Assembly (NCBI GenBank): GCA_034435095.1
Contig: DAOTYC010000143.1
Span: 1 to 59,706, forward strand
Direction of reading: 5' to 3'
Length of the DNA: 59,706 nucleotides
Source of the DNA: Anaerolineae bacterium
GTDB taxonomy: Bacteria > Chloroflexota > Anaerolineae > DAOTYC01
Shown here: positions 21,743 through 59,706 of the stretch, one piece after another
Position numbering within the stretch: position 1 is the first letter of the stretch
Layout of the letters: every line of letters starts with the position of its first letter
Program-made: the position numbers and the translations under genes
Notes under the pieces: model-generated
Databases searched by the model: none
Told to the model about the DNA's origin: nothing
The model's input: only the letters and a program-made list of their open reading frames with translations

Positions 21743-21936
21743 GCGTTTCTAATCCCGAAGTTTTGTGCCTGTGGTTCTGGACTGTTTGAGTAGGCTTGAG
21801 GGTGGACTTGTTGAGGTGTAGGAAGGGGGTGGTCTCCAGGACTCGGGGAATTCGAAGCGAGATTCAAATTTCATGGACGCAACAGAGTTGAAATGATTTT
21901 TGACAGAGTGGTTTGAACAATGAGGAGGTTACCGAA

Positions 21937-31427: not shown

Positions 31428-31547
31428 TTCACACCTCCTCAATGGGCGCCTGTCCGGAGGTTCAGTCGTCAGGGCGGCGACCTATACAGCCAAAGTCGGC
31501 CCTGTCGCCTGGCTTCGGACAGGCTACTAAGAAACTACCAAGCCACT

Positions 31548-36712: not shown

Positions 36713-38497
36713 GTGAGAGTGAACGAAGAGTCGTTGGAGATGAACGGCGACAGTCTCTGGCCAGCGGGCCATGTCCTTTGTAGCCGGTATGTGATAGACC
36801 GTGTCATGATGCGTCGGCCCTTGCTGGTGAGCTATCGGGCCTTCGACCTGGCGCGTTCAAAGCCGGTGGTCCTGCAGGCTCTGGACGAGACCCTCGTTCG
36901 CGATCCGGCCCTGATGCCGCGCTTGCGTGAGGAAGCGAGCCGGGCCCAAAAGTTGGCTCACGACCATGTCGTCGCCTTCCATGGACTGGAGGAAGACGGG
37001 CCGCACGTGTTCGCCGTGCGAGATTATGTGGACGGCCTGGTTCTGGCCGAGTATCTGGCGGAAACCAATCGACCGCTGGTTTTCTATGAGGCGCTGCAAA
37101 TCATCGAACAGGCTGGCCGCGCTTTACATTATGCCCACAGTGCCGGAATTCTGCACCGGGCCCTCAACTTGCAGAGCATTGTGTTAAGTTGTGATGGGCA
37201 GGTATTGGTGCGCGGCCTGGCGCTGCCCAGCCTCATCGGCATTTCTGGCGAAAGCGACTTCGACCCGCATTACCTGTCGCCGGAGCAATGTCTCGGGCGG
37301 AAGATCGATCACCGCGCTGACCTCTACTCGCTGGCTGCCATCGCGTATCGGCTGTATGTCGGACGGCCCCCTTTCCTCAGCAATGAAGCGGACGGAGATG
37401 CCGCAGCGGGGTGGAAGAGAATCTGCTGGCAGCATGTCCATTCCCCCCCGCCGTTCGCCAGCACGGTGAACCGTGATGTACCTAAAGAAATTAGCTGGGT
37501 CTTGAGCAAAGCCCTGGCCAAGCGTCCGGAGGAGAGATTCCGCTCTACCGCTGAGTTCACCGCAGTCATGAAACGTGCCTGGCGAGAAGCGGGTTTGGAC
37601 CCGGAGGCGATGTGCGTTGAGCCGCCCTCATGGATCAGAGAGCCCGAGTTCATTTCCCCACCCAAACCACTCCGGGTTCGCCCGACGGCGCAGACGATGG
37701 GCCGTCAGCCGATACCCACTGTGAAGGCAACATCGCCGCAGCAAAAGGTCTCTCTTTTCTGGCTGGGCGGGCTGGCGTTGGTTGTTTTGGCGGTATGGAC
37801 CGTCCTGCTGGCTGTCTTGCTTGACAACAATGCGCGCGAGCAGGCCAGCATGGTGTTCGGCCAAAGGCCGCCCGTAGACGCCGGTGTCACCGGCTTCTAC
37901 GAACTGCCTACCTGGACGCCGCCCATCATTCCGACGCCGACCGGCACGCGCGTCAGCCTGGGCGTCAACGTGGCCGAGTTTGCAGCCCCGCCGGCGGCTG
38001 TCCCCGCTGGCCTGCCGTTCAACGGGTTGCGGCCTCTTTCGGGTGAGTTCAACTGGGCTGGTTATGTGAGCAGCGTCAAATGGCGCGCATACACTGAGCC
38101 GCGCTTTGGCTACGCACTGGTGTATCCCGACGGCTGGGAAATTGAGCCCGGACAGAATGTGTTGCGGCTGTACATGCCGGAACGCGACGTGGGCGTGGCG
38201 ATTTGTGCTTGTGGGACGCGCGTGGCCGACGCCAGCCAGTGGGCCGCGCGGGTGCTCGACATTTTGCGCAACGACTTTCCAGGTCTGCAACAATTGGAAC
38301 AGCGCGTTTATCAGCCCGGCTGGCTGGCGACCGCCGCCCGCGCGCCGCAGGAGGGCGATGACGAAATCCAGATCGCCATACTGAGCTCCGGGCAGGCCCA
38401 GCGCGGTTATGCGGTTGTCTTCGTGGCCTGGGCTTCGGATTGGCAAGGAGTGAAGCCGATATTTGACCAGATGGCGCAAAACGCGCGTTTCCCATAG
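36713..38497 (+). CDS. Membrane Ser/Thr pseudokinase with extracellular PsbP-like domain
   Basis: Kinase-fold landmarks kept (RY, LAHDHVV, YLSPEQ, DLYSL..I.Y....G.PPF), but Gly loop, VAIK Lys, HRD and DFG are all replaced. TM at about aa 350; [19 protein letters not shown]. Upstream TTGACA-17-TATCCT at 36635-36663. Confidence 0.85.
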
Positions 38498-42896: not shown

Positions 42897-44663
42897 CTAT
42901 TTCGCTGGCGCCTCAAGGAGCTTGTTCAGCATCAGCGCAAACTGTGCCTTAAGCCGGCCTGGGCCGGAAAATGGGTCGAAGCCCAGCATCTCGCGGATGC
43001 GCATCTGGCGATAGTTGAGGGTGTTGCGATGAATGTAGAGTTTCCTGGCTACGCCAACATTGTCTTCGCCCGACAGACAGAGCAATTCCAGTGTTTTCAG
43101 CAGGTCTGTCCCGTTGGCGCGGTCATACGCCTTGACTGGCCCCAGCACATCTTCGACGATTTGGCGCGATTCCCGTCGCTCGGCCACCGAGTCGAGCAGA
43201 GAATACAGGTATGTGTCGCTGATGTGCACCACGTGGCCGGGCCCGAGCAATCGCTGACCGATTTCCAGGGCGCGCACGGCATCGGCGTACCCTCGATGGA
43301 GTGTGATGTAGTTGTGCTCAGGGCCGCTTACTCCAATGGACAGGTCCAACGATTGAGTCGCCGCCCCACCCGAATTCAGGTGGTTTCTGACTTCTCGCAA
43401 AATGGTTTCTGCCAGGGCGATGCTTTTCTCCTTGGCGGCGTTGGCGGAGGACAAAGGCCCTTCTGTGGCAAGCAGGATCAGAATTCGACTGCCTCTGGGC
43501 ACAACCATGTTACGGCGTGACTCGCGATGAACGATGTCTTCGATCACGCGAAAGACCAGTTCCCTGGTGTGATCCATCCTTTGGCCGGCGCCATCCGTGG
43601 GCGCGCTGCCAGAGGGGTCGCTGAGGCCGATCACCATCACCGCACATTTGTCCTCGATATTGATGCCCAGGGCGAGGGCCTGACGCTTGATGATTTCCGG
43701 ACTTAAACTGGATCGGCTCAACAGGTCATCGAGAAAATCTCCTTGCAATCGCCGTTCGGTCTCCCGAATGGAGATCGCTCTCATGCGTTCGAGTGCGATC
43801 GCAGTTACCCCGACCTGCAGGACATAGTCCTGGATTTCTGGGATGACCTCGCCGCAATTGAACACGACCAGGTGTCCGGTCAGGGTCCTTTCCACTTGAA
43901 CGGGCCTGGATGAAATCTCGATCGCGCAACCAAGGGTTTGTTCCCAATCTCGCCTGCTCTCTTGGAGGGCATCCATCAAGCAAGTGATGTCCTGAGTCGA
44001 GGCCGCCTGGCGATATGGACGCTTCCAGCCGGCATCTGCGACTATCTGGTTGAGCAACGTCCGGCCCGCGAGGTGGTATGGGCTGGCAGCGATGATATTG
44101 AGTCGCTCGTCTACCATGAGCACCGTGCTCCTGAGGAGCTCGGACAGGGATTCGATCAGCGTTTGCAGCGATGCCCCCATCAGCACTTCATGAGTCAAAC
44201 GCTCGTGAACGGATAACGCGAATTCCAGTTTCCTGGTCTGTAGTTGGAGCAGCTCGGCCAGCACCGACGTGATAATGTCGGAATATACGACACGCTTGTC
44301 GGTTGCCTCTTCGGGTATTGTGAGCAGAGGAAAGGCTAATTCCTCAGCGCGCTGAACGAGCTGATCGAGGGTATTCCCCTTGAAATAGCGGCCGATGTAG
44401 CAGATGATCAGCCCGGCGCAGCCCCGCTTCGCCAGCTCATCAATCCAGCGCAATTGAGCCTGAAGGTCATCGCGTACCGCATAGAAGGCGGTGATCAGCA
44501 GTTCGTTGCCGTTGAGCAGCAGGAAAGAGTCGTCGGTCTCCATTACATTCACCGTGCTCACGATGCGGTCGAGGCCGGCGTGTCCGCCCAGCACAACGGC
44601 TTGAGACAGGGGGGCCAATTTTAGAACTTCACGAAGCGGGATTCCAACTGTCTGTCTTGACAT
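42897..44663 (-). CDS. PucR-family transcriptional regulator
   Basis: N-terminal PucR ligand domain (VLGGHAGLDRIVSTVNVME...ELLIT), GGDEF-like middle, C-terminal LLKTL...ARKLYIHRNTLNYR...I HTH; promoter TTGACA-17-TAGAAT on minus (44719-44691). Confidence 0.93.
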   Translation of the reverse strand: MSRQTVGIPLREVLKLAPLSQAVVLGGHAGLDRIVSTVNVMETDDSFLLLNGNELLITAFYAVRDDLQAQLRWIDELAKRGCAGLIICYIGRYFKGNTLDQLVQRAEELAFPLLTIPEEATDKRVVYSDIITSVLAELLQLQTRKLEFALSVHERLTHEVLMGASLQTLIESLSELLRSTVLMVDERLNIIAASPYHLAGRTLLNQIVADAGWKRPYRQAASTQDITCLMDALQESRRDWEQTLGCAIEISSRPVQVERTLTGHLVVFNCGEVIPEIQDYVLQVGVTAIALERMRAISIRETERRLQGDFLDDLLSRSSLSPEIIKRQALALGINIEDKCAVMVIGLSDPSGSAPTDGAGQRMDHTRELVFRVIEDIVHRESRRNMVVPRGSRILILLATEGPLSSANAAKEKSIALAETILREVRNHLNSGGAATQSLDLSIGVSGPEHNYITLHRGYADAVRALEIGQRLLGPGHVVHISDTYLYSLLDSVAERRESRQIVEDVLGPVKAYDRANGTDLLKTLELLCLSGEDNVGVARKLYIHRNTLNYRQMRIREMLGFDPFSGPGRLKAQFALMLNKLLEAPAK

Positions 44664-44995
44664 GGCAGAACTCCTTCTTTTCAGGCCATCATTCTAGCAG
44701 CTACAGCCAGATATGTCAACTGAGCCAGGTCGTTTGTTCACCTGCACAATCACAAGGCTTTCTGGAGGCCTTGACATTATGCATTCGCCCTATGTATTAT
44801 TTACCCAAAGTGTGCTATACTTAAAGAGCGTGGGGGATGTTCATTTGCCCACTCTTCTCATCCTTGCCATCATGCACAAACCTGGTATCTGTCGAAATGA
44901 TTGTCAGGCATGGGAAGCCCGCTCTCGTCAGGCTGGAAGGACGGGGAGCTCAGTTGTTCTCTTGAAATCTGCATGGCACACATCGAGGAGGAGCA

Positions 44996-46129
44996 ATGCT
45001 AACTCATGAGTTGAAAACAAGACAACAATGTGAAGACTTTGTACGGGGCTGTACGATCATGGGCACCGGCGGGGGCGGCAGCCCCGCGCGCGGCGTGGAA
45101 AAGTTGGCGAAGGGCCTTGACGAAGGGTTGAGACTGGGCTGGATCGATGTCAGCCGCATCGCCGATGACGCCTGGGTCGTCTGCCCTTTCTTGATGGGCT
45201 CGATTGCACCCAAGACGCCCAAAGACCTGGCTGAAATGAGAGAACTGGGCCTGACCGAGGTTCGCTATCCGAACGCCATTATGAACGCCATCCAGGAGCT
45301 GGAGACCTATACCGGCAAGAAGATCGGGGCCGTTGTGCCCATCGAGCTGGGCGGCGGCAATACCGCCGAATCGGTTGTGCAGGCTGCGCGGCTGGGCATT
45401 CCCTGCGTGGATGGCGACTACACCGGACGCGCCATCCCCGAAATCACGCAAATCACGCCGGTTCTGTTTGACAAGCGACTGGACCCGTTGACCGGTGTGG
45501 ATGAATGGGGCAACATCACCATCGTGAAAGCGGCGATCAATGAGCCGATGGCCGAGCGCATCGGCAAGTACCTGGCTGTAGCGGCGCATGGCCTGGTCTG
45601 CATGGCCGGCATCCTGCTGACTGGCCAGGAATGCAAAGAGATCATCGTACCGGGCACGCTCACTCTGTGTGAAAATCTGGGGCGGACTGTGCGTGAGGCC
45701 CGGCAGCAGGGTGGCGATGTGCCACAGGCCGTCGCCGCGGCGATGGGGGGCTGGATCATCTTCAAGGGCCGGGTCACCGAGAAGCAGTGGGAGGACCGGG
45801 CCGGCTATTACTGGGGCACCCACACCCTGACGGGCATTGAGGAATACAGCGGGCAGACCTTCAAGGTCTGGTTTAAGAATGAGAACCATATTTCCTGGCT
45901 AAACGACCGGCCGTTTGTGACCAGCCCAGACCTCATCTGCCTGGTTGACCGGACAAGCGGAGAGCCCAAGACCAATGACGCAGTGGCCGAAGGGGATGTC
46001 ATGTCGGTGATCGGCGCCAGGGCGCCCGAGCCGTTCCTCACCCGACCGAAGGGCCTGGAGGTGTTGGGTCCCAGGCATTTCGGCTTTGACTATCCGTTCA
46101 CGCCCATAGAGAAACTGCTGGGCCGCTGA
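44996..46129 (+). CDS. DUF917 family protein (family that includes S-methyl-thiohydantoin desulfurase)
   Basis: GTGGGGSP, PIELGGGN, DGDYTGRAIPE, NENH, PDLIC; typical DUF917 motifs. Confidence 0.88.
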   Translation: MLTHELKTRQQCEDFVRGCTIMGTGGGGSPARGVEKLAKGLDEGLRLGWIDVSRIADDAWVVCPFLMGSIAPKTPKDLAEMRELGLTEVRYPNAIMNAIQELETYTGKKIGAVVPIELGGGNTAESVVQAARLGIPCVDGDYTGRAIPEITQITPVLFDKRLDPLTGVDEWGNITIVKAAINEPMAERIGKYLAVAAHGLVCMAGILLTGQECKEIIVPGTLTLCENLGRTVREARQQGGDVPQAVAAAMGGWIIFKGRVTEKQWEDRAGYYWGTHTLTGIEEYSGQTFKVWFKNENHISWLNDRPFVTSPDLICLVDRTSGEPKTNDAVAEGDVMSVIGARAPEPFLTRPKGLEVLGPRHFGFDYPFTPIEKLLGR

Positions 46130-46166
46130 GCCGTGCGCGACGGTACCCACAGGGAAAGGAAGAGAA

Positions 46167-47246
46167 ATGAGTAGCCGATTGGTGTCTGTATTCTGTGAAA
46201 TGGTCAGGATCGACAGTGAGTCTGGCAATGAGCAGGCCTTCCTGGATTATCTGGCCCGCCTTTTTGTGCAGGATTTGGGCGCGAGCTGTCAGTTTGATGG
46301 GTTTGGCAACCTGGTCGCTCGCGTCCCCGCCAGGCATTGCGCGGACAAACCGCCTGTCCTGTTTGGGTGCCACGGCGACACAGTTAAACCAGGGCGCGGC
46401 ATTGTGCCTGTGGTGAAAGATGGGGTGGTCCGTTCACAGGGCGACACCATTCTGGGGGCGGATGACAAGGCCGGCATCGCCGAGCTGTATGAGGCCGTTT
46501 TGACAGCGACACAGCATCCGCCGCTGGAAATTGTCATCACGCGCGAGGAGGAAACGGGCCTGGTAGGGGCCAAGAATCTCGATGTCTCTCTGCTGACGGC
46601 CCAAATGGGCTTCATTCTGGACGGCGACACGATTGACTCTGTGGTGATAGGTGGGCCGTCCCACATGTTGATTGATGTCGAGATCACCGGGCGCGCCGCT
46701 CACGCCGGTATGGAGCCGGAGAAGGGCGTTTCGGCCATCAGGGCGGCCGCCCATGCCATCTCGATTCTGAAGGAAGGCTGGGTTGATCCCCAAACGACCT
46801 GTAATGTGGGCATCATCGAGGGCGGGCGCATCCGCAATGGCGTGCCGGAAAAGGCCTTTGTCAAGGCGGAGTGCCGCAGCCTTGACCACGACACCTGCCT
46901 GGCGTACAGCGATACTATTAAAGAAGCGTTCGAGGTGTCGGCCAGGGCCATCGGCGCGCAGGCAGAGGTCAAACTGGAGCTGGGCTATCGGGCGATGCGC
47001 GTGCCAGATGACGCACCGGTGCTGGCGGCGGCGCGCCAGGCCATCGAGCGGGCTGGCTTGACGCCCGACCTGCGAGTCATCTGCGGGGGGACGGACGCCT
47101 CCATTCTGAACGCCAAGGGCATTCAAAGCGTTATCTTGGGGGTTGGCGGCCGCGCTGAACACTCATCGGATGAGCATATTTACATAAGCGACATGGAAGC
47201 CGCTGTGAAGTTGCTGCACCATCTGTTTGCTGTGCTGTGCGAATGA
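46167..47246 (+). CDS. M20 family metallo-amidohydrolase (peptidase T-like)
   Basis: HGDTV, LGADDKAG, REEETG, GRAAHAG..PEKG, GGTDA, EHS.DE. Confidence 0.92.
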   Translation: MSSRLVSVFCEMVRIDSESGNEQAFLDYLARLFVQDLGASCQFDGFGNLVARVPARHCADKPPVLFGCHGDTVKPGRGIVPVVKDGVVRSQGDTILGADDKAGIAELYEAVLTATQHPPLEIVITREEETGLVGAKNLDVSLLTAQMGFILDGDTIDSVVIGGPSHMLIDVEITGRAAHAGMEPEKGVSAIRAAAHAISILKEGWVDPQTTCNVGIIEGGRIRNGVPEKAFVKAECRSLDHDTCLAYSDTIKEAFEVSARAIGAQAEVKLELGYRAMRVPDDAPVLAAARQAIERAGLTPDLRVICGGTDASILNAKGIQSVILGVGGRAEHSSDEHIYISDMEAAVKLLHHLFAVLCE

Positions 47247-47260
47247 GAGGGAACGGCCCG

Positions 47261-47794
47261 ATGGATGTCATGGAGGCGATTCTGGGGCGTAGAAGCGTGC
47301 GTTCCTACGAAGCTGAGCCTGTGCCCGCAGAAGTGCTGCGTAAGCTGGTGGAGGCCGGCATTTGGGCGCCTTCGGGAGGCAATGCGCAGACCTGGCGCTT
47401 CGTGGTGGTCACCGAACCCCGCCGCATCCGACAGCTCAAGATGCTCAGCCCGGGCCTGCTGGGCGACCCACCCGCGGTCATTGTGATCTGTCAGGACGTG
47501 GCTGAGGCTGAACGCCGCGGAGATAAGCTCGGCAGAGAGGTCCTCACTCTGATGGATACGGCCATGGCGGCGCAGAACATCATGTTGGCGGCCTATGCCG
47601 AGGGCCTGGGCACGTGCGCCATCTGTTCTTTTCACCCGGGCGGCGTTCAGAAGCTCTTGCGGTTGCCGGAGAACATCATCCCGCAGATGTTGGTCTCTGT
47701 CGGTGTGCCCAAAACAATTCCCAGGCCGCCGAAGCGCAGGTTTGACGTGATTTGGTTCGATGAGTATACTGAACACGATGGATCGGTCAGTTGA
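47261..47794 (+). CDS. Nitroreductase family flavoprotein
   Basis: RRSVRSY, APSGGNAQTWRF, AAQNIMLAAYAEGLGTC. Confidence 0.92.
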   Translation: MDVMEAILGRRSVRSYEAEPVPAEVLRKLVEAGIWAPSGGNAQTWRFVVVTEPRRIRQLKMLSPGLLGDPPAVIVICQDVAEAERRGDKLGREVLTLMDTAMAAQNIMLAAYAEGLGTCAICSFHPGGVQKLLRLPENIIPQMLVSVGVPKTIPRPPKRRFDVIWFDEYTEHDGSVS

Positions 47795-48062
47795 GCCCAA
47801 AGTGTTCGAATTGGTTTGCTATATGGTGACCAGTGCCTGTAACCTGCTCAACGAGAACAGGTTATACGGCCCTTTTCGCCTGGTTGACGCGGCCAGTCGT
47901 TTGATTGCACTCATGGCAGAAGAGGGGGTAGAAAGCGCCCGGCTTCAACAAATCCGTGAGCGGATTCTGGCAGGCCAATATAGTGTGATGGACGACGAGA
48001 AAGCCTTCTCTGATTTCCTCCAAGACCTGGTGCTTTCTCTTGTACCCTTGATGGAAGAGTGA
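47778..48062 (+). CDS. Small conserved protein (DUF6092-like)
   Basis: FELVCYMVTSA.NL..E...YGPFRLVDAASRLI motif; overlaps the nitroreductase 3' end. Confidence 0.7.
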   Translation: MDRSVEPKVFELVCYMVTSACNLLNENRLYGPFRLVDAASRLIALMAEEGVESARLQQIRERILAGQYSVMDDEKAFSDFLQDLVLSLVPLMEE

Positions 48063-48290
48063 ATGGGAGAGACGGGTGGGGGACTCTTCTCTTCTCAGTT
48101 GCAGCCGTTGATTCCAATGAAGGATGATTAGAATCGCATATTGCTTTCTCAAATACCTCTGTCGCTCTTTGGAAAGGAGGTGGTTTGCAGGCTGGTTGTC
48201 CAATGAGATGTGATTGATCGGAACGTTGGGATTGTTTCGGAATTAGGTCGTTGCAAACGACGTTTGTATTCTGAGAGGAAGGAGAATAGC

Positions 48291-49979
48291 ATGAAAAGCC
48301 TGAAGTCAATGCTGTATGGGGTGGTATTGGTTGTTTTGCTCTCTGTTCCCGCGTTGGGGGTCGCCCCCGTAGCGGCGCAGGGGCACAATCCGGACAGCAT
48401 CGTGCGTTGGTGCGAGGACTGGCCGACGTACATTGATCCGGCGGTGGGGACCGACTTCTCCGACTCGATGGCGCTGGCCAACCTGTACGATACCCTTGTG
48501 TTCCCGAACCTCGACGGCTCGATCAGGCCACACCTGGCTGAGAGCTGGGATATTTCCGATGATGGCCTGACCTACACATTCCATCTGCGCAAGGGCGTCA
48601 AGTTCCACAACGGCGATGAGCTCACCGCGGAAGATGTTGTCTTCAGCGCGGAGCGGTTGTTTACCATCGGCGAAGGATTTGCTTACCTGTTGCAGACTAA
48701 AGACAAGGACGGGAACATCACCGCCGGGATCAAGTCAGCCAAAGCACTCGATGACTATACGGTCGAGTTCACTTTGGCCAGGCCGTTCGGCCCGTTCGTG
48801 CCAGCTTTGGTGCGGCTGTACATCCTCAACAAGTCGCAGGTGTTGGAACACATTGACAAATCCGAGACCATGTATGGCGAGATGGGCGACTACGGCAAGA
48901 AGTGGCTTTTGACCAACGACGCTGGCAGTGGCCCGTACATGGTCAAAGAGATGAAGATGGAGGAGTCCCTGCTGGCCGAGAAGTTCGATGACTACTGGGG
49001 CGGCTGGGAGGAGAACGCGCCCGATTTCTTCAAGGAGTTCGCTTTCCCTGGCGAAGTGGCGACGCGGACGCTGATGAAGAACCGTGAGCTGGAGATTTCC
49101 TCCGAAACGCTGCCGCAGGAAGGCTATGCGGCCATCCGCGAGATCCCTGGCTGCAACACGGTGGCCTATCTTGCGCCGCATAACCTGCAGATCATGCTCA
49201 ACACCAAGAAACCGCCCACCGACGACATCCACTTCCGCAAGGCGCTCTCGTGGATCATGGACTACGACGCGGTGAACAATGATATTTGGCCGAACTATGT
49301 CCAGTCCATCGGGCCGGTGCCGCAGACTCTGCCGGGCCACAATCCAAATGTTTTCCAGTATCACTACAACCCGGAGAAAGCCAAAGAGGAGATGGCCAAG
49401 TCGGCCTACGCCGGCCAGACGAACATCCCGTTCACGCTGTCCTGGTGTGCCGAGGTGCCCGACGAGGAGAAGGTCGCCCTGTTGTTCCAGGCCAATGCTG
49501 CCGAGATCGGGGTCAATGTGGAAATCTTCAAGAAACCCTTCGGCGCCATGATTGACGATGCGCAGACGGTGGACACCACGCCGAACGGTTCTATCGTCTA
49601 CGTGGCTGCCCACTACAACGAAGCGGGGTCCATGCTGGAGACGCGGTATCACTCCAAGTCGCAGGGCACGTGGGAGCAGTGTGAGTGGCTGGGTATGCCG
49701 GACATTGACGCAGCCATCGAGGACGCGCTGGCGACGGTTGACCGCGAGGAGCGGTTCAAGAAGTACGCCGCGATTCAGGAGACACTCGTCGAGCTGGCGC
49801 CGACCATCTGGCTGGCCGACCAGGCGCAGGAGTTCGGATACCAGGAGGCCTATCTGATGTGGCCGCTGGCCGAGCGCATCAAGGCCGGCGAACCCACCAG
49901 CGCGGTGATGGGCTACAGCCACTACGTCCATGACATGAAGGTCTACCCGGAGAAGAGGGCGGAGCTGCTGGGTAAATAG
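48291..49979 (+). CDS. ABC transporter substrate-binding protein, family 5 (DppA/OppA-like)
   Basis: NLYDTLV, PHLAESWDIS.DGLTYTFHLRKGVKFHNG, GSGPY; ATG 48291 after GAGGAAGGAG; signal peptide ends VAA-QG. Confidence 0.95.
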   Translation: MKSLKSMLYGVVLVVLLSVPALGVAPVAAQGHNPDSIVRWCEDWPTYIDPAVGTDFSDSMALANLYDTLVFPNLDGSIRPHLAESWDISDDGLTYTFHLRKGVKFHNGDELTAEDVVFSAERLFTIGEGFAYLLQTKDKDGNITAGIKSAKALDDYTVEFTLARPFGPFVPALVRLYILNKSQVLEHIDKSETMYGEMGDYGKKWLLTNDAGSGPYMVKEMKMEESLLAEKFDDYWGGWEENAPDFFKEFAFPGEVATRTLMKNRELEISSETLPQEGYAAIREIPGCNTVAYLAPHNLQIMLNTKKPPTDDIHFRKALSWIMDYDAVNNDIWPNYVQSIGPVPQTLPGHNPNVFQYHYNPEKAKEEMAKSAYAGQTNIPFTLSWCAEVPDEEKVALLFQANAAEIGVNVEIFKKPFGAMIDDAQTVDTTPNGSIVYVAAHYNEAGSMLETRYHSKSQGTWEQCEWLGMPDIDAAIEDALATVDREERFKKYAAIQETLVELAPTIWLADQAQEFGYQEAYLMWPLAERIKAGEPTSAVMGYSHYVHDMKVYPEKRAELLGK

Positions 49980-50005
49980 CCCGCCAGTTTCAGCGCAGCA
50001 GTGCA

Positions 50006-50270
50006 GGGGGCGCAATTGGATTGCGCCCCCACAGGCGTCAAGTTAAGGGTAGAAATCATCCAAACCTGCCTGACATCACAGGTATTTGTCGTTGCGAGGA
50101 ACCCGCAGGGCGACGAAGCAACGTAGCCCGGCCCCTCGTGGGCGTCTCAACGGGCGCAAGGCCCTATGCTACGGCCGCCAAGCGGGGATTGCTTCGCTTC
50201 GCTCGCAGCAATGTAGCATAGCCCCTTGTGGGCGTAACGGGCACAAGGCCCTACGCTACTCGCAATGACT
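50006..50270. repeat. REP-like mosaic between the SBP and permease genes
   Basis: GGGGGCGCAAT-TGG-ATTGCGCCCCC perfect hairpin (50006-30); two GTAGC...GCCCT(A/G)(T/C)GCTAC modules; GGATTGCTTCGCTTCGCTCGCA. Confidence 0.8.
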
Positions 50271-50411
50271 GACAGGCCCTGCCAGCTTTGCTTAGATTTG
50301 GACTTGTCTCGCGTGCCTGGACGTGTCTTAACTTGACTCCTATGGGCAGGTATGGAAGCCTGCCCTGCGCGATTGTTGAAGTATTGACATCCCTTGAAAT
50401 CAGGAGGGTTC

Positions 50412-51437
50412 ATGAGGTTAGGACCATTCATACTTCGTCGTTTGGGCCTGTCCATATTTGTCTTGTTCGGCCTTTCCATACTTATTTTCATCATTGCACG
50501 GATTGTGCCGGGCGACCCGGCGCGCATGGCCCTGGGCCCCAGGGCGCCGGTAGAAGTCGTCGAGCGTCTGCGCCAGCAGATGAACCTGGATAAGCCTTTG
50601 CCCCAGCAGTATGTTCTGTGGCTGTGGGGGGTGGTGCATGGCGACTTAGGAGACTCCCTGGTTTCTCGTCGTCCAGTAGCCCAAGATATTCGGGAGTTCT
50701 TCCCGGCCACTCTGGAGCTGGTCGCTGTGACGGCGGTACTGATCGCCAGCCTGGGCATATCTTTGGGCGTATTGTCGGCCCGTTACGCCAACACGTGGCT
50801 GGACAGCATCATTCGTTTGTTATCCTATCTGGGTATCGTTACTCCGGCCTTTGCCTGGGCGGTTATTCTGGTGCTGTTGTTTGGTTTCGTGTGGCATTTC
50901 TTCCCAACCTATGGTCGCCTGACTGAAGGCACTGTTCCTCCTCCCATGATCACCGGCATGTACACCGTTGACAGCCTGCTGACCGGACAACCGGCCAAAT
51001 TCTGGGATGCCTTTGTCCACCTGCTCTTACCGGCCATCGCGCTGGCCTTGCCGCCGATGTCGCAGGCGGCGCGCATCACGCGGTCGAGCATGGCCGACAA
51101 TCAGAGCAAGGACTATGTGGCTTCGATGATCGCCTATGGCGTGCCCCATCGGGTTGTCGTTGGAAAGTATCTGCTGAAGCCTTCTTTGATCTCACCGATT
51201 ACGGTCATGGCTATGGACATCGCGGCAACCTTCGGATACGCATTTATGGTGGAGAAAATCTTCGGATATCCCGGCCTGGCCCGCTATGGCATCCAGGTCA
51301 TGCTCAACAAGGATGTGAATGCCATAGTAGGAGTGGTCATGGTGTTGGGGATCGTGTTTGTCACCCTGAACATTGTGGTTGACATTGTGGTAGCTTATCT
51401 GGATCCGCGTATCCGGCTGTTGGGGAGGAGTTCCTGA
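50412..51437 (+). CDS. Peptide/nickel ABC transporter permease (DppB-like)
   Basis: PGDPA, GDLG.S, PATLEL, P.F, ARITRSSM, PGLARY. Confidence 0.94.
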   Translation: MRLGPFILRRLGLSIFVLFGLSILIFIIARIVPGDPARMALGPRAPVEVVERLRQQMNLDKPLPQQYVLWLWGVVHGDLGDSLVSRRPVAQDIREFFPATLELVAVTAVLIASLGISLGVLSARYANTWLDSIIRLLSYLGIVTPAFAWAVILVLLFGFVWHFFPTYGRLTEGTVPPPMITGMYTVDSLLTGQPAKFWDAFVHLLLPAIALALPPMSQAARITRSSMADNQSKDYVASMIAYGVPHRVVVGKYLLKPSLISPITVMAMDIAATFGYAFMVEKIFGYPGLARYGIQVMLNKDVNAIVGVVMVLGIVFVTLNIVVDIVVAYLDPRIRLLGRSS

Positions 51438-51438
51438 T

Positions 51439-52344
51439 ATGACGACGCAGGGCATTGCGCTGACCGAGATGCTCGAAAATCCCTGGCTGAGAAGATGGGA
51501 CTCAGCGAAGCGGGCATGGTACAAGTTCTCCAGGAACTGGCTTTCGGTGCTCGGGCTGTTCATGGTGGCGACGATTGTCTTCCTGGCCGTTTTTGCCCCG
51601 TATGTGGCCCCTTACCCCCAGCACGCCGGCAAATTTGTTGATTTCAAAGGCATGAACCAACCGCCCAGCCTCAAGCATCTGATGGGCACCGATACAGTGG
51701 GGCGAGACATTCTCTCGCGCATCATCTTTGCTTTTGGCAACGCGTTGTTCATGGCGATCGGCGTTTTGATTGTCAGCGTCCCCCTGGGGACCTTGACCGG
51801 CCTCATGGCCGGTTACTACTCAGGGACGTGGGTGGATACGGTCATTATGCGTGTCACCGATGTGTTTATCAGCCTTCCCTCGCTGGTTCTGGCACTCTCC
51901 ATTGCCGCCATGCTGAAGCCAACCTTGATGAATTCGATGATGGCCGTGACGGTGAGCTGGTGGCCCTGGTATACGCGCATGACCTATACCCTGGCCTCTT
52001 CCATACGAAACGAGTATTACGTCCAGGCCGCCGAACTGACCGGCGCCAGCAAATGGCACATCCTGTTCCGGGAGATACTGCCCAATTGTTCATCGTCCTT
52101 GTTCACCAAGATGGCGCTGGACGTGGGGTGGGTGACGCTGGTAGGCGCGGCCCTGAGTTTCGTCGGCCTGGGCGAGCAACCGCCTAATCCGGCGTTGGGC
52201 ACCATGATCTCAGAAGGGGTCGAGCGTATGCCGGCCCAGTGGTGGATCGCGGTCTTCCCCTCGCTGGCGGTGATGCTCGTGGTTTTGGGCTTCAATCTGT
52301 TCGGCGATGGCATCCGCGATATGCTGAGCCCTGAGGAGGCGTAG
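51439..52344 (+). CDS. Peptide/nickel ABC transporter permease (DppC-like)
   Basis: HLMGTDTVGRDILSR, AAELTGAS...LFREILPN, LSFVGLG.QPP.P.LG. Confidence 0.94.
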   Translation: MTTQGIALTEMLENPWLRRWDSAKRAWYKFSRNWLSVLGLFMVATIVFLAVFAPYVAPYPQHAGKFVDFKGMNQPPSLKHLMGTDTVGRDILSRIIFAFGNALFMAIGVLIVSVPLGTLTGLMAGYYSGTWVDTVIMRVTDVFISLPSLVLALSIAAMLKPTLMNSMMAVTVSWWPWYTRMTYTLASSIRNEYYVQAAELTGASKWHILFREILPNCSSSLFTKMALDVGWVTLVGAALSFVGLGEQPPNPALGTMISEGVERMPAQWWIAVFPSLAVMLVVLGFNLFGDGIRDMLSPEEA

Positions 52345-52349
52345 TCATC

Positions 52350-53348
52350 ATGGCTGAAACGTTGCTTGACATACGGGACCTCCACGTCTGGTACAAGGTG
52401 TATGGGGGGGTGTTGAAAGTCCTGAACGGGGTGAACTTCACCGTCCATGTCGGCGAGAAGGTCGGCCTGGTGGGAGAGACCGGCTGCGGCAAGACGACGA
52501 CCATGAAAGCCGTGCTGCGAATCCTGCCGCCGCAGGCCCAAATCCCCAAAGGCCAGATCCTGGTGCACGGCAAGGACGTGCTCAAGATGAACTCGCGGGA
52601 ACTGGCCGACCTGCGCGGCAGGGGCCTGTCCATGATTTTTCAGGACCCGACTTCGGCGTTGAATCCGGTGTTCACAGTGGGGCAGCAGTTGTACGATGTC
52701 ATCCGCTATTCGGCCGGAGCGACCGGAGAGGCCGTGAAAGACAAGCGGGCCGTGGCTCTGCGCGCCCTGCGCGAAGCCCGCCTGCCAGACGCGGAACGCA
52801 TGTTGGACAGCTACCCCATCCAGCTCAGCGGCGGGATGCGCCAGCGGGTGTGTATCGCCTTCGCCATCGCCACAGCCCGCGACCTGCTGATCGCCGATGA
52901 GCCGACGACCAACCTGGACGTGACCATTCAGGACCAGGTGCTGCGCCTGATCCGCGACCTGGTGGAGCAGAAGGGCACGTCTCTGATCCTGATCACCCAT
53001 TCGCTGGGCCTGGCCCGCGAGATGACCGACCGCGTATACGTCATGTACGCCGGCAACATGATTGAGATGGCCGACACGCCGGCGTTGTTCAAAGAGCCCC
53101 TGCACCCGTATACCCAGGGCCTGTTTGCCTCGATCCCACGCCTGACCGGCGGCGGATTTGCCGAAGGCATACCGGGCCGCATCCCCGACTACAGAAACCC
53201 GCCGCCTGGCTGTCGCTTTCAGCCGCGCTGCCCGCACGCCTTCCAACCGTGCGGACAGGCCATGCCGCCGTATTTCGATGTGGGGGAGGGCCATCAAGTC
53301 GCCTGCTACCTGTATCAGTCCGGACGGGAGGTGACCACCAATGCCTGA
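52350..53348 (+). CDS. Oligopeptide ABC transporter ATPase (DppD-like)
   Basis: [44 protein letters not shown]. Confidence 0.95.
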
Positions 53349-54339
53349 GGCAGCAGCATCGAACAACGATATTCTGGTAGCCGACAAGCTGGTCAAGTAT
53401 TTCCCCATCAACCGTTCCGGCCTGTTCAATCAGCGATGGATCATCGTGAAAGCGGTAGATGGCATCAATTTCACCATCAAGCAGGGCGAGTGCTTCGGCC
53501 TGGTCGGCGAGTCCGGCTCGGGCAAGAGCACGACGGCCTATATGACAGTGGGGACTTATGCGCCCACAAGCGGTTCGCTTACGTTCAAGGGAGAGGACAT
53601 CGCCCGTCCGGCGGTGCAGCGTCCCATGCACCTGAAGAAGGACATCCAGATTGTCTTTCAAGACCCCGGCTCTTCGCTGAATCCCAGGCGTACCATCGCC
53701 GACATCATTGAGATGCCCCTGCGGGTGCACAACATGGTCAAGAAGGGGGAGTCGGTAGAAAAGAAGATCATCGAATTGCTCGACATGGTTGAGCTGCCGG
53801 CCCACTACCGTTTCAAGTCGCCGGTGACCATCGGCGGCGGCGAACGCCAGATGGTCGCCATCGCCCGCGCGTTGGCGACTGAGCCATCGTTCATGATCCT
53901 GGATGAGCCGACCTCAGCCCTGGATGTCTCCGTGCAGGGCAAGATCATCAACATGCTGATGCGCATCCAGAAAGAGTTTAACCTGACCTACATGTTCATC
54001 ACCCATGACCTGAGCCTGATGCGCAACGTGGCGACCCGCATCGCCATCATGTATCTGGGCAAGATTGCCGAAGTCGCACCAGCAACAGAGTTCTTCGAGA
54101 AGCCGTTGCACCCCTATACGCAGATGTTGCTGTCGTCTATCCCGGTCGTCTCGGAAGAAGAAGAGCGCTTCAAGCCGAGCAAGATTCACTCGGTGGGCGA
54201 AATCCCCAGCCCGGTAGATGTGCCGCCGGGTTGCAGTTTCAATACGCGCTGTCCGTTCAAGACGGATAGATGTCTGGTCGAAGACCCGGTCATGCGTGAA
54301 ATAGAGCCTGGACATTTTGCTCGATGCCATAACATCTGA
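53341..54339 (+). CDS. Oligopeptide ABC transporter ATPase (DppF-like)
   Basis: GESGSGKS, ILDEPTSALD, HPYTQML, PPGCSFNTRCP; atypical signature IGGGERQ. Confidence 0.94.
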   Translation: MPEAAASNNDILVADKLVKYFPINRSGLFNQRWIIVKAVDGINFTIKQGECFGLVGESGSGKSTTAYMTVGTYAPTSGSLTFKGEDIARPAVQRPMHLKKDIQIVFQDPGSSLNPRRTIADIIEMPLRVHNMVKKGESVEKKIIELLDMVELPAHYRFKSPVTIGGGERQMVAIARALATEPSFMILDEPTSALDVSVQGKIINMLMRIQKEFNLTYMFITHDLSLMRNVATRIAIMYLGKIAEVAPATEFFEKPLHPYTQMLLSSIPVVSEEEERFKPSKIHSVGEIPSPVDVPPGCSFNTRCPFKTDRCLVEDPVMREIEPGHFARCHNI

Positions 54340-54366
54340 GACTTTCTTACGAGGAGGTAAAGTATT

Positions 54367-55416
54367 ATGCCAACAACGATGGATTTGGAAATTGGAATGG
54401 GTGCTTATAAGGTCGTGCGTGACCTGTTGGCGGTGAAGAAGGGTGAGAGTGTGCTGATCACCATTGACTCGGCCGGCCACTGGCGCATGGCGGAGGAAAC
54501 GGCCAAAGCCGCCGAGGCAATGGGCGCCAAGGTGATGGTGGCCTGGCACTCGACGCCGCCCGGCTATGGCAAGGTGGGCGACCCCTATCTGCCGGACAGC
54601 CTGCACGCGGCGATACCGGAGACCGATTGCTGGGTAGAGTATAACTACCAATGGCTGCTTTATTCCACGCCGTGGGAAAAGGCCCTGACCAACCCCAAGC
54701 GGGTACGCTACCTGTTCCTGGGTGGCCTGAACGAAGAACAGTTCGTGCGTTGCGTCGCCAAGGTTGACCTGGACCTGCAGAAGCAGTTCCAGGACACGCT
54801 GGTAGATTTGACCAAAAAGGCCCGCAAGATGCGCATCACCAACCCGGCGGGGACCGATGTGCAGTTTGAAAACGACCCGAAGCGGCCCATTACCAACGAG
54901 GGCTGGGCGTTGGAGCCGGGCGCACACTTCCTGCTGGGGCAAATTGGCTGGGCGCCGGTCGAGGAGACTATCAATGGCGTCATCGCCTTCAACGGCTCGT
55001 TCTCCGGCGGCGGCGAAGCCGACCTGGGCATTCTCAAAGAGCCGGTGTTGTTCCATGTCAAGGAAGGGGTGTGTGTGGACATCACCGGCGGCGAAGAGGC
55101 CAAGTTCCTGAAGGGCTGGTTCGCCCGGTTGGAGGACCCACTGATGTATCATGCGGCCCATGTGTGCTATGGCTTCAACCCCGGCGCGAAGCTGTCCGGC
55201 CTGTGCACGGAAGATGAGCGGGTGTGGGGCTCGACCGAATGGGGCTTCGGTTATCAGGGGCCTTTCTTTAAGGCCAAGGGCATCAACGCCAAGACCCACG
55301 TGGACGGCATCTGCCTGAACTCGTCGGTCTGGCTGGACGGCGAGCAAATCATGGATCAGGGACGATTGCTGCATCCGAAGCTGGCCGAGCTGGCCGCCAA
55401 GATTGGCAAGCAATAG
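54367..55416 (+). CDS. M29/aminopeptidase-T-fold metalloprotein with NicX-like His...HxD motif (paralog 1)
   Basis: VKKGESVLITID, ITNPAGTD, G.I..AP.E..NG.I.F.GS, AHVCYGFNP, EDER.WG, THVDGI. Confidence 0.75.
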   Translation: MPTTMDLEIGMGAYKVVRDLLAVKKGESVLITIDSAGHWRMAEETAKAAEAMGAKVMVAWHSTPPGYGKVGDPYLPDSLHAAIPETDCWVEYNYQWLLYSTPWEKALTNPKRVRYLFLGGLNEEQFVRCVAKVDLDLQKQFQDTLVDLTKKARKMRITNPAGTDVQFENDPKRPITNEGWALEPGAHFLLGQIGWAPVEETINGVIAFNGSFSGGGEADLGILKEPVLFHVKEGVCVDITGGEEAKFLKGWFARLEDPLMYHAAHVCYGFNPGAKLSGLCTEDERVWGSTEWGFGYQGPFFKAKGINAKTHVDGICLNSSVWLDGEQIMDQGRLLHPKLAELAAKIGKQ

Positions 55417-55432
55417 GGGGACCATATAGGAT

Positions 55433-56476
55433 ATGCCAAATACGTTAGACCTGGAATTGGGTGCCGTGGCTTACAAGGTGGTGCGCGACATCACGGCGGT
55501 GAAGCAGGGCGAGAGCGTCCTGATTACGGTTGATTCAGCCGGCTCGTGGACGGTCGCGGAGGAGCTGGCCAAGGCGGCTGAGTCGCTGGGGGCGAAGGTG
55601 ATGGTGGCGTACCACTCGACGCCAGTAGGTGTCGGCAAGGTGGCTGAACCGTACCTGCCCGACAGCCTGAAAGCGGCCATACCCAACACCGATGTCTGGC
55701 TCGAGCTGAACTGGCAGTGGCTGGGCTATTCCTCGCCCTACGAACAGGCGTTGGTGCCGCCCAACCGGGTGCGGTACATGTGCCTGTGCGGGCTGGACGT
55801 GGAGCGGATGGTGCGCTTTTTCAACGTTGACCTGGAAGCGCAAGATGCTTTTCAAAAGAAGGTCGTGGAGCTGACCAAACGGGCGCGCGAGATGCACATC
55901 ACCACGCCGGCCGGCACCGATGTACGCTTCGAGAACGACCCGCGGCGGCCGGTCATCAGCGAGCTGTGGTGTCACACGCCGGGCGCGCATTTCCCGCTGG
56001 GCCAGATCGCCTGGGCGCCCATCGAGAAGTCCATCAACGGCGTTATCGTCTTCGACGGCTCGTTCTATGCCGGCGGGCCGGCCGACCTGCCCTCACTGTC
56101 CGAGCCGATAGCCTTTCATGTGAGGGAGGGCGTCTGTGTGGAGATTACCGGCGGCGAGGAGGCCAAGATCGCCCGCCAGTGGCTGAATTCGCTGAACGAC
56201 CCGGGCATGTACCATGAAGCGCACATCTGCTACGGTTTCAATCCGGGGGCCAAACCCTCCGGCATCTGCGTCGAGGACGAGCGCATCTGGGGCGTCACCG
56301 AATGGGGCTTCGGCCACCAGGGCATCCAATTCAAGGCGGACGGCGTGTCGGCGGTCTCTCACCTGGACGGCATCTGCCTGAATTCCTCAGTCTGGCAGGA
56401 CGGTGAGCAGGTGCTCGATCGGGGTCAGGTGGTGCACCCGGAGCTGGTCGAGCTGGCGCGCAAATTAGGGAAGTAG
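55433..56476 (+). CDS. M29/aminopeptidase-T-fold metalloprotein with NicX-like His...HxD motif (paralog 2)
   Basis: Colinear with paralog 1: AHICYGFNP, EDERIWG, SHLDGI. Confidence 0.75.
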   Translation: MPNTLDLELGAVAYKVVRDITAVKQGESVLITVDSAGSWTVAEELAKAAESLGAKVMVAYHSTPVGVGKVAEPYLPDSLKAAIPNTDVWLELNWQWLGYSSPYEQALVPPNRVRYMCLCGLDVERMVRFFNVDLEAQDAFQKKVVELTKRAREMHITTPAGTDVRFENDPRRPVISELWCHTPGAHFPLGQIAWAPIEKSINGVIVFDGSFYAGGPADLPSLSEPIAFHVREGVCVEITGGEEAKIARQWLNSLNDPGMYHEAHICYGFNPGAKPSGICVEDERIWGVTEWGFGHQGIQFKADGVSAVSHLDGICLNSSVWQDGEQVLDRGQVVHPELVELARKLGK

Positions 56477-56549
56477 GCTGACAGGTTCTGGTCTGTGGCC
56501 CCTCTCCCAGCTTGGGAGAGGGGCGTTTTGTTGCCGTTCTGGCCGGTGG

Positions 56550-59428: not shown

Positions 59429-59706
59429 GCCTCCCCACGGCGCGTGGGGGCCGCCGCTCGTTGGGGAAGAAACACCGCTGGGTGTCATGGCCGGATCGTT
59501 TCTTAGTGGGCGCCGCCCGATTCCGTCATGCTGAGCGAAGCGAAGCATCTGCCGAAGGCGAAGCAATCTCCGGGTTGGCGGCTGTAGCATAGGGCCTTGT
59601 GCCCGTTACGCCCACAAGGGGCTATGCTACATTGCTTCGTCGCCCTGTGGGCGACTCGCAGGGCCTTGTGCCCGTTACGCCCACAAGGGGCTATGCTACA
59701 TTGCTT
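59422..59706. repeat. REP-like mosaic (continues past the window end)
   Basis: TTCTGAGC.CCCCACGGCGCGTGGG, GTCATGCTGAGCGAAGCGAAGCATCT, and GTAGCATAGGGCCTTGTGCCCGTTACGCCCACAAGGGGCTATGCTAC plus a partial second copy. Confidence 0.85.

Follow-up and report, generated by a model that had tools for sequence, protein, structure and literature searches.

A PucR-linked operon of an Anaerolineae bacterium combines a cyclodipeptide-oxidase-like flavoenzyme with a Dpp-type importer and NicX-family proteins, and may serve the degradation of cyclic dipeptides

Contig DAOTYC010000143.1 of the Anaerolineae bacterium assembly GCA_034435095.1 contains an operon of eleven co-directional genes on the plus strand (44996-56476), upstream of which the gene for a PucR-family transcriptional regulator is located in the divergent orientation (42897-44663, minus strand). 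The window, i.e. the whole stretch of DNA that was analyzed, has a length of 59,706 nucleotides. The gene content and layout are as claimed in a preliminary description of the locus that was made from the sequence alone. Judging from the signals described below, the operon is a single unit running from promoter to terminator, in which an importer is combined with hydrolases under a divergent PucR regulator.

The first gene of the operon (44996-46129) encodes a 377-residue protein with the DUF917/S-Me-THD fold (PF06032, 8e-43; PF20906, 1.5e-54), and the second (46167-47246) a 359-residue, peptidase-T-like M20 metallopeptidase. These are followed by genes for a nitroreductase-fold flavin mononucleotide (FMN) subunit (47237-47794, likely start ATG at 47261; PF00881, 1.6e-32) and a small helical protein of the DUF6092 family (47760-48062, likely start ATG at 47778; PF19585, 4.4e-26), referred to below as CDOA and CDOB. 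The next five genes specify an ATP-binding cassette (ABC) importer, composed of a family-5 (Dpp/Opp-type) solute-binding protein (SBP) with a signal peptide (48210-49979, likely start ATG at 48291; SBP_bac_5, 4.5e-70), a DppB-like permease (50394-51437, likely start ATG at 50412; BPD_transp_1, 1.7e-32, and BPD_transp_1_N), a DppC-like permease (51439-52344; BPD_transp_1, 3.5e-31, and OppC_N), and two ATPases that are DppD-like (52350-53348; ABC_tran, 4e-29; oligo_HPY, 2e-18) and DppF-like (53341-54339; ABC_tran, 2e-30; oligo_HPY, 4e-17). The operon ends with the genes for two M29-fold metalloenzymes of the NicX family, paralog 1 (54367-55416, 349 residues) and paralog 2 (55433-56476, 347 residues), which are 66% identical to each other. 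The divergently encoded regulator has 588 residues and the domain order N-terminal PucR (3e-25), GGDEF-like (GGDEF_2, 1e-14) and C-terminal HTH_30 (4e-13); it scored below every NCBIfam equivalog cut-off, and those of PmfR, AdeR and CdaR were not reached.

The 332-nt divergent control region (44664-44995) contains back-to-back sigma-70-like promoters, located at 44771-44800 on the plus strand and 44719-44691 on the minus strand, each matching 11 of the 12 consensus positions, and the ATG of the DUF917 gene is preceded by the sequence GAGGAGG. An open reading frame (ORF) for 98 residues (44713-45009) overlaps this region; because it gave no family match in Pfam and contains a promoter-like site, we treated it as spurious. 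Within the operon, the intergenic gaps range from -35 to +37 nt, with the exceptions of 147 nt before and 414 nt after the SBP gene. An intrinsic-terminator-like hairpin (56498-56524, plus strand) starts 22 nt past the last stop codon; its GC-rich 12-bp stem, with 9 GC pairs, is followed by the T-tract GTTTTGTTGC. No riboswitch or other Rfam element was detected in the region 44600-50450 at E<=1, and the only Rfam hit elsewhere in the window was a tRNA. A comparison of upstream regions yielded just one other usable PucR-DUF917 spacer, and no PucR operator motif was called from it.

The 414-nt spacer between the SBP and the first permease gene (49980-50393) contains, 27 nt past the SBP stop codon, a perfect 11-bp GC-rich hairpin (50006-50030; GGGGGCGCAAT/ATTGCGCCCCC) that is not followed by a T-tract and that may stabilize or process the message such that more SBP than membrane components is made. 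Further downstream are two copies (50114-50172 and 50204-50259) of a palindromic element of about 56 nt that resembles repetitive extragenic palindromic (REP) elements and has the core GTGGGCGT..ACGGGCRCAAGGCCCTA. A third copy is located at the end of the window (59590-59615, minus strand). By chance, no copy at all would be expected. The elements in the spacer probably function in the processing or stabilization of the SBP message. The preliminary description had noted that parts of the locus look more A/T-rich than the flanks, which proved not to be significant: the GC content of the cluster is 58.8% versus 61.0% for the window, placing it at the 14th percentile of equal-sized windows, and only the DUF6092 gene (50.5%) and the spacers are clearly lower. 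A foreign origin of the cluster, considered on the basis of base composition, was rejected on the same figures.

The sequence evidence identifies the nitroreductase-fold and DUF6092 proteins as CDOA and CDOB, the two subunits of a cyclodipeptide oxidase (CDO) of the AlbA/AlbB type, of the subtype not associated with a cyclodipeptide synthase (CDPS). This pair had not been recognized as such in the preliminary description, which did propose a dedicated catabolic system, a view that we share. Several lines of evidence support the assignment. Firstly, the best PDB match of CDOA was AlbA (8uc3_A, 9e-31), followed by a second CDO A-subunit (9exv_A, 2.5e-26), whereas the first match other than a cyclodipeptide oxidase had an E-value of 1e-19, eleven orders of magnitude weaker than that of AlbA; CDOB matched AlbB (8uc3_D, 3.8e-8). 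Secondly, PF19585 (DUF6092) has been reported to correspond to CDOB, the obligate partner of the nitroreductase-fold CDOA, their genes being "often overlapping" (Andreas et al., Nat Commun 2024, PMC11055893); the CDOA and CDOB ORFs of the window overlap by 35 nt. Thirdly, the arginines that bind the FMN phosphate in AlbA (R24, R28 and R175) are kept in CDOA as R18, R22 and R167, and residues E33, Y37, R41 and M78 of AlbB correspond to E32, Y36, R40 and M77 of CDOB, the first three of which are invariant, and the last nearly so, among 14 homologues from related clusters. Tyr37 of AlbB is the catalytic base, and a Y37F mutant is inactive.

The pair thus resembles AlbA/AlbB of the albonoursin pathway of Streptomyces noursei (PDB 8uc3) in its overlapping genes, its FMN-binding arginines and its catalytic residues. 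It differs from it in several respects. The cysteine that carries the flavin as 8-alpha-S-cysteinyl FMN in AlbA, Cys115, is confined to the CDOAs of CDPS clusters (PMC11055893); in the CDOA studied here it is replaced by Asp107, and the FMN would therefore be bound non-covalently. In addition, AlbA Ser54 is replaced by Gly48 (in the motif APSGGNAQ), AlbB Pro34 by Asn and AlbB Gly79 by Asp. The setting differs as well: instead of being accompanied by a CDPS, the genes are located together with an importer and hydrolases under a PucR regulator, in a host that is probably anaerobic. The latter view stems from other genes in the window, which encode a tungsten-type aldehyde:ferredoxin oxidoreductase (21913-23889) and two B12-binding radical-SAM enzymes (6098-7561 and 9594-11066), suggesting an anaerobic lifestyle of the host, which is probably an Anaerolineae-like member of the Chloroflexota. 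By likeness to AlbAB, the enzyme probably forms filaments, and it may catalyze the alpha,beta-dehydrogenation of cyclic dipeptides.

All characterized CDOs are biosynthetic (PMC11055893), which raises the question whether the enzyme of the window could tailor a diketopiperazine natural product made by the host itself, by dehydrogenating it. We consider this extremely improbable: neither a CDPS nor a nonribosomal peptide synthetase (NRPS) was matched when the genes called across the 59.7-kb window were scanned with Pfam, the transporter is an SBP-dependent importer and not an exporter, and Cys115 is absent.

The module composed of DUF917, a Dpp-type ABC importer, CDOA/CDOB and a NicX-like protein, with or without M20 and PucR, is present in Chloroflexota, Bacillota, Thermotogota and archaea, and this recurrence of the same gene set across phyla places the arrangement far beyond chance. 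In the strict anaerobe Thermacetogenium phaeum DSM 12270 the order is PucR-DUF917-SBP5-permeases-ATPases-CDOA-CDOB-NicX-M20, and its CDO is listed in the supplement of Andreas et al. A Chloroflexia genome (2.1 Mb) has the gene order of the window, supplemented with Hydantoinase_A and a second DUF917 gene, and Pseudothermotoga has the order IclR-DUF917-Dpp-[CDOA-CDOB fusion]-NicX-DUF917-DUF917-NicX/M29. The natural CDOA-CDOB fusion in Pseudothermotoga (L001, 9165-10001; likewise in L002 and L003) supports a functional coupling of the two subunits in catabolic clusters. When contexts were sampled starting from CDOB, NicX-family genes were present in all three (Pyrococcus kukulkanii, a Clostridia metagenome contig and a 498-kb metagenome contig), as was DUF917, the further neighbors being drawn from DUF1177, an Asp/Glu racemase, AroM, M20 or CN-hydrolase, and an OPT or Dpp transporter.

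Two observations on these loci can be added. DUF1177 (PF06675) and AroM (PF07302) recur beside CDOA/B, DUF917 and NicX-like genes in three loci (L086, L087 and L088), in Pyrococcus kukulkanii together with an OPT peptide transporter; the window contains no DUF1177, AroM or OPT gene. The T. phaeum operon (L084, 1-8086) is located directly downstream of glycine-cleavage and L-serine dehydratase genes, neighbors that may hint at end products of the Gly/Ser type.

The importer has the same five-component architecture as DppABCDF of E. coli, with one SBP5 protein, two permeases and two oligo_HPY ATPases, and the nearest PDB relative of its SBP is E. coli DppA (1e-34). It differs in that the SBP scored only 112.8 bits against the DppA equivalog, for which the cut-off is 1005, and in residues of the ligand pocket. 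In DppA, Arg355 and Asp408 are the residues that we take to anchor the carboxylate and ammonium groups of the dipeptide. We aligned the SBP of the window and 24 SBPs from related clusters with E. coli DppA. At an alignment identity of about 25%, and with residue roles taken as just stated, the Arg355 loop is deleted in all 25 proteins, and at the position of Asp408 an Asp is kept in only one; His occupies it in 16, including the SBP of the window, and Ser in four. This SBP thus appears not to be built to grip the free termini of a peptide. The deposited DppA chains 8z1z_F and 8z1y_F differ exactly at these two positions (R to D and D to R), consistent with Arg355 and Asp408 being regarded as ligand anchors.

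These data bear on the explanation that the operon serves ordinary peptide feeding by a Dpp importer and general peptidases, with the nitroreductase, DUF6092 and DUF917 genes as passengers. The DppABCDF-like transporter, the PepT-like M20 enzyme and the automatic annotation of NicX-like homologues as 'leucyl aminopeptidase' would fit with it. However, in Chloroflexota, Bacillota, Thermotogota and archaea alike the supposed passengers have been inherited along with the importer, and they are even found fused to one another. The genes also share one transcription unit, in which they overlap or lie close together, and the SBP has departed from DppA where the latter anchors its ligand. We therefore regard ordinary peptide feeding as improbable. 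The proposal in the preliminary description, that the operon is a regulator-controlled system for the import and degradation of a non-standard nitrogen compound and not for generic peptide feeding, is in line with the conservation of the gene set across phyla and with the loss of the DppA anchors.

Neither NicX-family paralog gave a match at E<=0.01 in the local Pfam library, Peptidase_M29 (PF02073) included, while all their close homologues are annotated as PF26233 'NicX'. Their sole solved sequence relative is NicX (7cn3), found at 6.7e-9 with the protein alone and at 2.8e-16 with the family profile, at an identity of about 20%; in the PDB the profile of the NicX-like family reached only NicX and no M29 chain. 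The AlphaFold model of paralog 1 has a pLDDT of 93.5, and in Foldseek it matched NicX 7cn3 with a TM-score of 0.78 (E 1e-25) and the M29 aminopeptidases PepS, AmpT and AmpS (4ics, 4icq, 2ayi and 1zjc) with TM-scores of 0.58-0.69 (E 1e-14 to 1e-16). This bears out the M29 fold assigned to the two proteins beforehand. They share the overall two-domain fold with the aminopeptidases of clan MQ, family M29 (AmpS, AmpT, PepS), from which they differ by being about 60 residues shorter and by matching, at the sequence level, neither the M29 model of Pfam nor any M29 chain in the PDB.

Could the two paralogs, like NicX and Hpo, be 2,5-dihydroxypyridine (2,5-DHP) 5,6-dioxygenases, with which they share the Pfam family, the fold and the His/His/Asp site? 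NicX has four essential Fe(II) ligands, His265, Ser302, His318 and Asp320 (PMC7910607). The two histidines and the aspartate are kept as H265, H311 and D313, but Ser302 is replaced by Gly293, and the spacing of the metal motif is HX45HXD as compared to HX52HXD in NicX/Hpo. Of the residues that position the substrate, Leu104 is kept (Leu98) and His105 is replaced by Tyr99. The lactam-binding His189 corresponds to His187, and Glu177 aligns with Asn177, which is adjacent to an invariant Glu178; at about 20% identity the alignment is accurate to plus or minus one residue. The Glu and His with which NicX holds the lactam of 2,5-DHP are apparently kept as E178/H187.

The distribution of the family points in the same direction as the residue differences. 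Members that are 57-91% identical occur in Anaerolineae, Atribacterota, Spirochaetota, Bacillota, Thermotogota, Bathyarchaeia, Thermoplasmata and others; the strict anaerobes Moorellaceae and T. phaeum also carry them, and a copy in Pyrococcus adjoins CDOA/B. Their occurrence in strict anaerobes and archaea makes an oxygen-dependent ring cleavage unlikely and a dioxygenase role implausible, and it is likely that the NicX-like proteins act hydrolytically and not as oxygenases. The paralogs belong to two sister orthologous groups, which related Anaerolineae-type loci retain side by side as a tandem pair, a further difference from NicX/Hpo, and the subclades of NicX-like proteins follow the gene context. 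The NicX-like pair most similar to that of the window (91% and 86% identity) is located on contig JAUVXZ010000261.1 (L005), which is labeled Pseudomonadota; its similarity to the Chloroflexota-like window suggests either mis-binning of the contig or a recent transfer.

The DUF917 protein contains the same two S-Me-THD Pfam domains as the thiohydantoin and S-methyl-thiohydantoin desulfurases of ergothioneine catabolism. However, it scored 49.2 bits against NF058532 (cut-off 450) and 38.6 bits against NF058529 (cut-off 440), i.e. about 10% of the cut-offs for the desulfurase equivalogs, and no ergothionase, thiourocanate hydratase or ErtE partner accompanies it. Its AlphaFold model (pLDDT 95.2) has a sole structural relative, 2o3i, of uncharacterized function, so that the label 'hydantoinase' found in the literature has no structural support. 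A search of the paper library on thiohydantoin desulfurase returned nothing useful.

An aerobic cleavage of 2,5-dihydroxypyridine by NicX-type dioxygenases, or a breakdown of (S-methyl)thiohydantoin by DUF917, is therefore very improbable as the function of the operon, even though no solved protein is closer to the paralogs than NicX, the His/His/Asp site is kept, and DUF917 belongs to the S-Me-THD family of Pfam. Scans of the genes of the cluster and the window, which were not targeted searches, found no family suggestive of NicC, NicD, NicF or Ert partners. Both pyridines and ergothioneine had been among the candidate compounds listed before; from this list the S-heterocycle is weak, while the cyclic dipeptide has become the leading candidate.

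In the preliminary description, M20 enzymes in general were noted to hydrolyze N-acyl or carbamoyl amides. The M20 enzyme of the operon scored 278.2 bits against TIGR01883 (cut-off 274.25), and its best PDB matches were 3gb0, annotated 'Peptidase T' (1.6e-66), and the tripeptidase 3rza, and not carbamoylases; it is thus PepT-like. An orthologue is present in L008 (69% identity) and in five other loci, so that M20 is accessory rather than universal.

To determine with which genes the NicX-like family is associated, we counted partners among the clustered ORFs of 78 genome loci that hold a NicX-like gene. DUF917 was present in 31 loci and CDOA in 29, followed by an Asp/Glu/hydantoin racemase (PF01177) in 27, a Dpp-type SBP in 22 and CDOB in 20. 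A 224-residue SBP_bac_3-like protein was found in 17, a CodB-like NCS1 permease (287 bits to the cytosine permease model) in 15, a Liv-type ABC system in 14 and PucR in 13, and Hydantoinase_A, CN-hydrolase and PepT-like M20 in six each. DUF917 accompanied the Dpp-type SBP in 20 of the 22 SBP loci (odds ratio 41), CDOA was associated with the Dpp-type SBP (odds ratio 6.4) and with DUF917 (5.9), and DUF917 and CDOA both avoid the NCS1 and Liv systems; it should be noted that the loci are phylogenetically related, so that these odds ratios and their p-values are indicative only. The SBP_bac_3-like gene regularly follows one NicX-like subclade (e.g. L056, L061, L072, L073 and L076) and is itself often followed by a gene for a 404-residue protein with a partial nitroreductase domain; the pair looks like a separate conserved module.

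The partner counts show that NicX-like genes are also found in another context, and this leads to a different explanation, i.e. that the operon functions in the catabolism of a cyclic ureide, such as a 5-substituted hydantoin, a dihydropyrimidine, dihydroorotate or a creatinine-like ring. According to this scheme, the flavoenzyme would reduce or oxidize a ring substituent, DUF917 and the NicX-like proteins would replace hydantoinase and carbamoylase, and M20 would complete the pathway. In its favor, the family is found beside NCS1 permeases (15 loci), racemases (27), CN-hydrolase (six) and Hydantoinase_A (six), those DUF917 enzymes that have been given a name all have thiohydantoins as substrates, and PucR regulators are classically tied to purine and ureide catabolism. 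Links to hydantoin and allantoin have also been suggested by Andreas et al. (PMC11055893). The logic of import, ring opening and amide hydrolysis would moreover be shared with hydantoin-utilization (hyu) operons, and related NicX loci carry hyu-type partners. However, the window itself contains no racemase, NCS1 permease, CN-hydrolase or Hydantoinase_A and, differing in this from hyu operons, no hydantoinase or carbamoylase; the M20 enzyme is PepT-like and not a carbamoylase; and DUF917 and CDOA go with Dpp-type importers in the NicX loci, while avoiding NCS1 and Liv systems. Furthermore, 2,5-diketopiperazines (DKPs, i.e. cyclic dipeptides) are the only known CDO substrates. On balance, we regard the ureide explanation as unlikely, though it is the main rival of the one favored below.

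The same data, together with the fold of the NicX-like proteins, bear on the possibility that the substrates are unusual linear peptides with dehydro-, D- or N-modified residues, in which case the CDO-like enzyme and DUF917 would repair the unusual residue or convert it, leaving the M29-fold and M20 enzymes to serve as peptidases. The Dpp-type importer, the relationship of the PepT-like M20 enzyme to tripeptidases and the M29 aminopeptidase fold are consistent with this, as is the presence of OPT peptide transporters and racemases in related clusters. We nevertheless consider it quite unlikely: the SBP lacks the features with which DppA holds peptide termini, the M29 model of Pfam gave no match to the NicX-like proteins, and these proteins are also encoded beside NCS1 permeases of the nucleobase type, by which peptides would not be transported. 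The recycling of muropeptides or D-peptides was also considered and was rejected, the window containing no racemase or amidase.

Taken together, we consider it probable that the operon is dedicated to breaking down, by means of a CDO-type enzyme, a peptide-like amide that is cyclic or modified. A dedicated catabolic pathway is the most economical explanation because it accounts for a regulated unit with an importer, a CDO-type enzyme and three to four hydrolase-type enzymes, the lack of a CDPS or NRPS match, and co-inheritance across phyla. The best explanation overall, to which we assign a probability of roughly 0.4, is that a PucR-activated operon imports and degrades a cyclic, peptide-derived amide, with DKPs foremost.

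As to the substrate itself, DKPs are our leading, albeit tentative, candidate, for several reasons. Firstly, they are the only compounds on which CDOs are known to act (PMC11055893). Secondly, the CDO travels with Dpp importers in NicX-like loci and, in Pyrococcus, with OPT. Thirdly, the SBP does not seem to hold free termini. Fourthly, many carriers of the module are anaerobes that are thermophilic or live in sediments; hosts of this sort ferment peptides and inhabit places in which DKPs form spontaneously. Finally, the degradation of DKPs is little known and our search of the paper library for DKP degradation or DKP hydrolase genes found none. DKPs have been described as abundant and resistant to ordinary peptidases, and according to the same study, from 2013, little was known about their degradation, and their cleavage by peptidases was not confirmed (PMC3852281).

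The data establish what the parts are, how the operon is built and that the module is conserved. In the scheme that follows, we infer which compound is the substrate, in what order the steps take place, in which direction the flavin reaction runs, and that the NicX-like proteins act as hydrolases. The compound would be imported by the family-5 SBP and the DppBCDF-like transporter. CDOA/CDOB, an FMN-dependent enzyme with non-covalently bound flavin and an AlbB-type catalytic Tyr, probably forming an AlbAB-like filament, would then act on the C-alpha/C-beta bond of the ring. It could dehydrogenate this bond to yield a readily hydrated enamide or, in an anaerobe, reduce an unsaturated ring or use another acceptor. 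A reductive direction or an alternative acceptor in anaerobes has also been noted by Andreas et al. (PMC11055893). DUF917 and/or the NicX-like metalloenzymes, acting as hydrolases and not as dioxygenases, may hydrate the product, open the ring and cleave amides. The second NicX-like enzyme and the PepT-like M20 peptidase would cleave the linear product to amino acids, or to a 2-oxo acid and ammonia, and PucR would sense the substrate or an intermediate.

Several observations weigh against degradation of DKPs by this route. Firstly, characterized CDOs require O2 for the reoxidation of FMN, while many of the hosts are anaerobes (PMC11055893), which makes the direction of the flavin reaction and the electron partner uncertain. 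Secondly, Ser54 of AlbA, which is the partner of the catalytic Tyr, is Gly in the CDOA of the window, and an S54A mutant of AlbAB is 62-fold less active; the CDOA orthologue of T. phaeum keeps the Ser. Thirdly, NicX-like genes are also located beside NCS1 permeases, Liv-type ABC systems, hydantoin racemases, CN-hydrolases and Hydantoinase_A, and a toolkit that includes NCS1, racemase, CN-hydrolase and Hydantoinase_A equally suggests hydantoin- or pyrimidine-like ureides. To these may be added the low identity of the SBP alignment and the relatedness of the NicX loci, both indicated above.

With respect to its gene content, the operon is a member of a kind that has been described bioinformatically, i.e. 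CDPS-less CDO operons with DUF917, a peptide ABC transporter and peptidases. In their 2024 survey of 274 CDO operons, Andreas et al. found that 88% lack a CDPS and that DUF917, Dpp/Opp ABC transporters, racemases and peptidases are over-represented in these, without assigning a function to them (PMC11055893). The neighborhood found in the window, with DUF917, a Dpp-type ABC transporter and peptidases, fits with this enrichment. The operon is therefore not undescribed, as had been thought, in the sense that its kind was cataloged in 2024 and the T. phaeum orthologue is listed there; in the sense that no function was assigned, the statement holds. New here are the DUF917-Dpp linkage, the divergence of the SBP from DppA, the anaerobic-looking host and, as far as the parts of the survey available to us go, the NicX family as a core partner, which is not named in the survey text and gave no match in a text search of the supplement.

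It is possible, though we put it forward only as a tentative generalization, that anaerobic and thermophilic bacteria and archaea share a hitherto unrecognized, oxygen-independent pathway for cyclic dipeptides, in which the CDO-type enzyme is catabolic and NicX-fold proteins, working with DUF917, are metal-dependent lactam or amide hydrolases. So far, the tailoring of biosynthetic products is the only role known for CDOs, even though their genes mostly lie outside biosynthetic clusters (PMC11055893), and the NicX fold is known only from Fe(II)-dependent ring-cleaving dioxygenases. If such a pathway exists, it would provide the genes for DKP degradation that are missing so far and would give the CDPS-less 88% of CDO operons a physiological role, and the NicX fold would extend to lactam and amide hydrolases. 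If the substrate is an ordinary peptide or a hydantoin, on the other hand, the operon would merely be a variant of known nutrient-scavenging operons. Together with its relatives in the culturable anaerobes T. phaeum, Pseudothermotoga and Pyrococcus kukulkanii, the operon constitutes a defined gene set with which to address the role of CDOs outside biosynthetic clusters, the non-oxygenase chemistry of the NicX fold, and the functions of DUF917 beyond thiohydantoin desulfuration.

Elsewhere in the window, genes for two paralogous proteins with FHA, Ig-like and CARDB domains and for two Ser/Thr kinases, one of them with PKD/Ig domains, are located at 29361-31442 and 31737-33761 on the minus strand and at 36713-38497 and 57020-59428 on the plus strand. 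These FHA and kinase genes form a signaling neighborhood that is unrelated to the operon.

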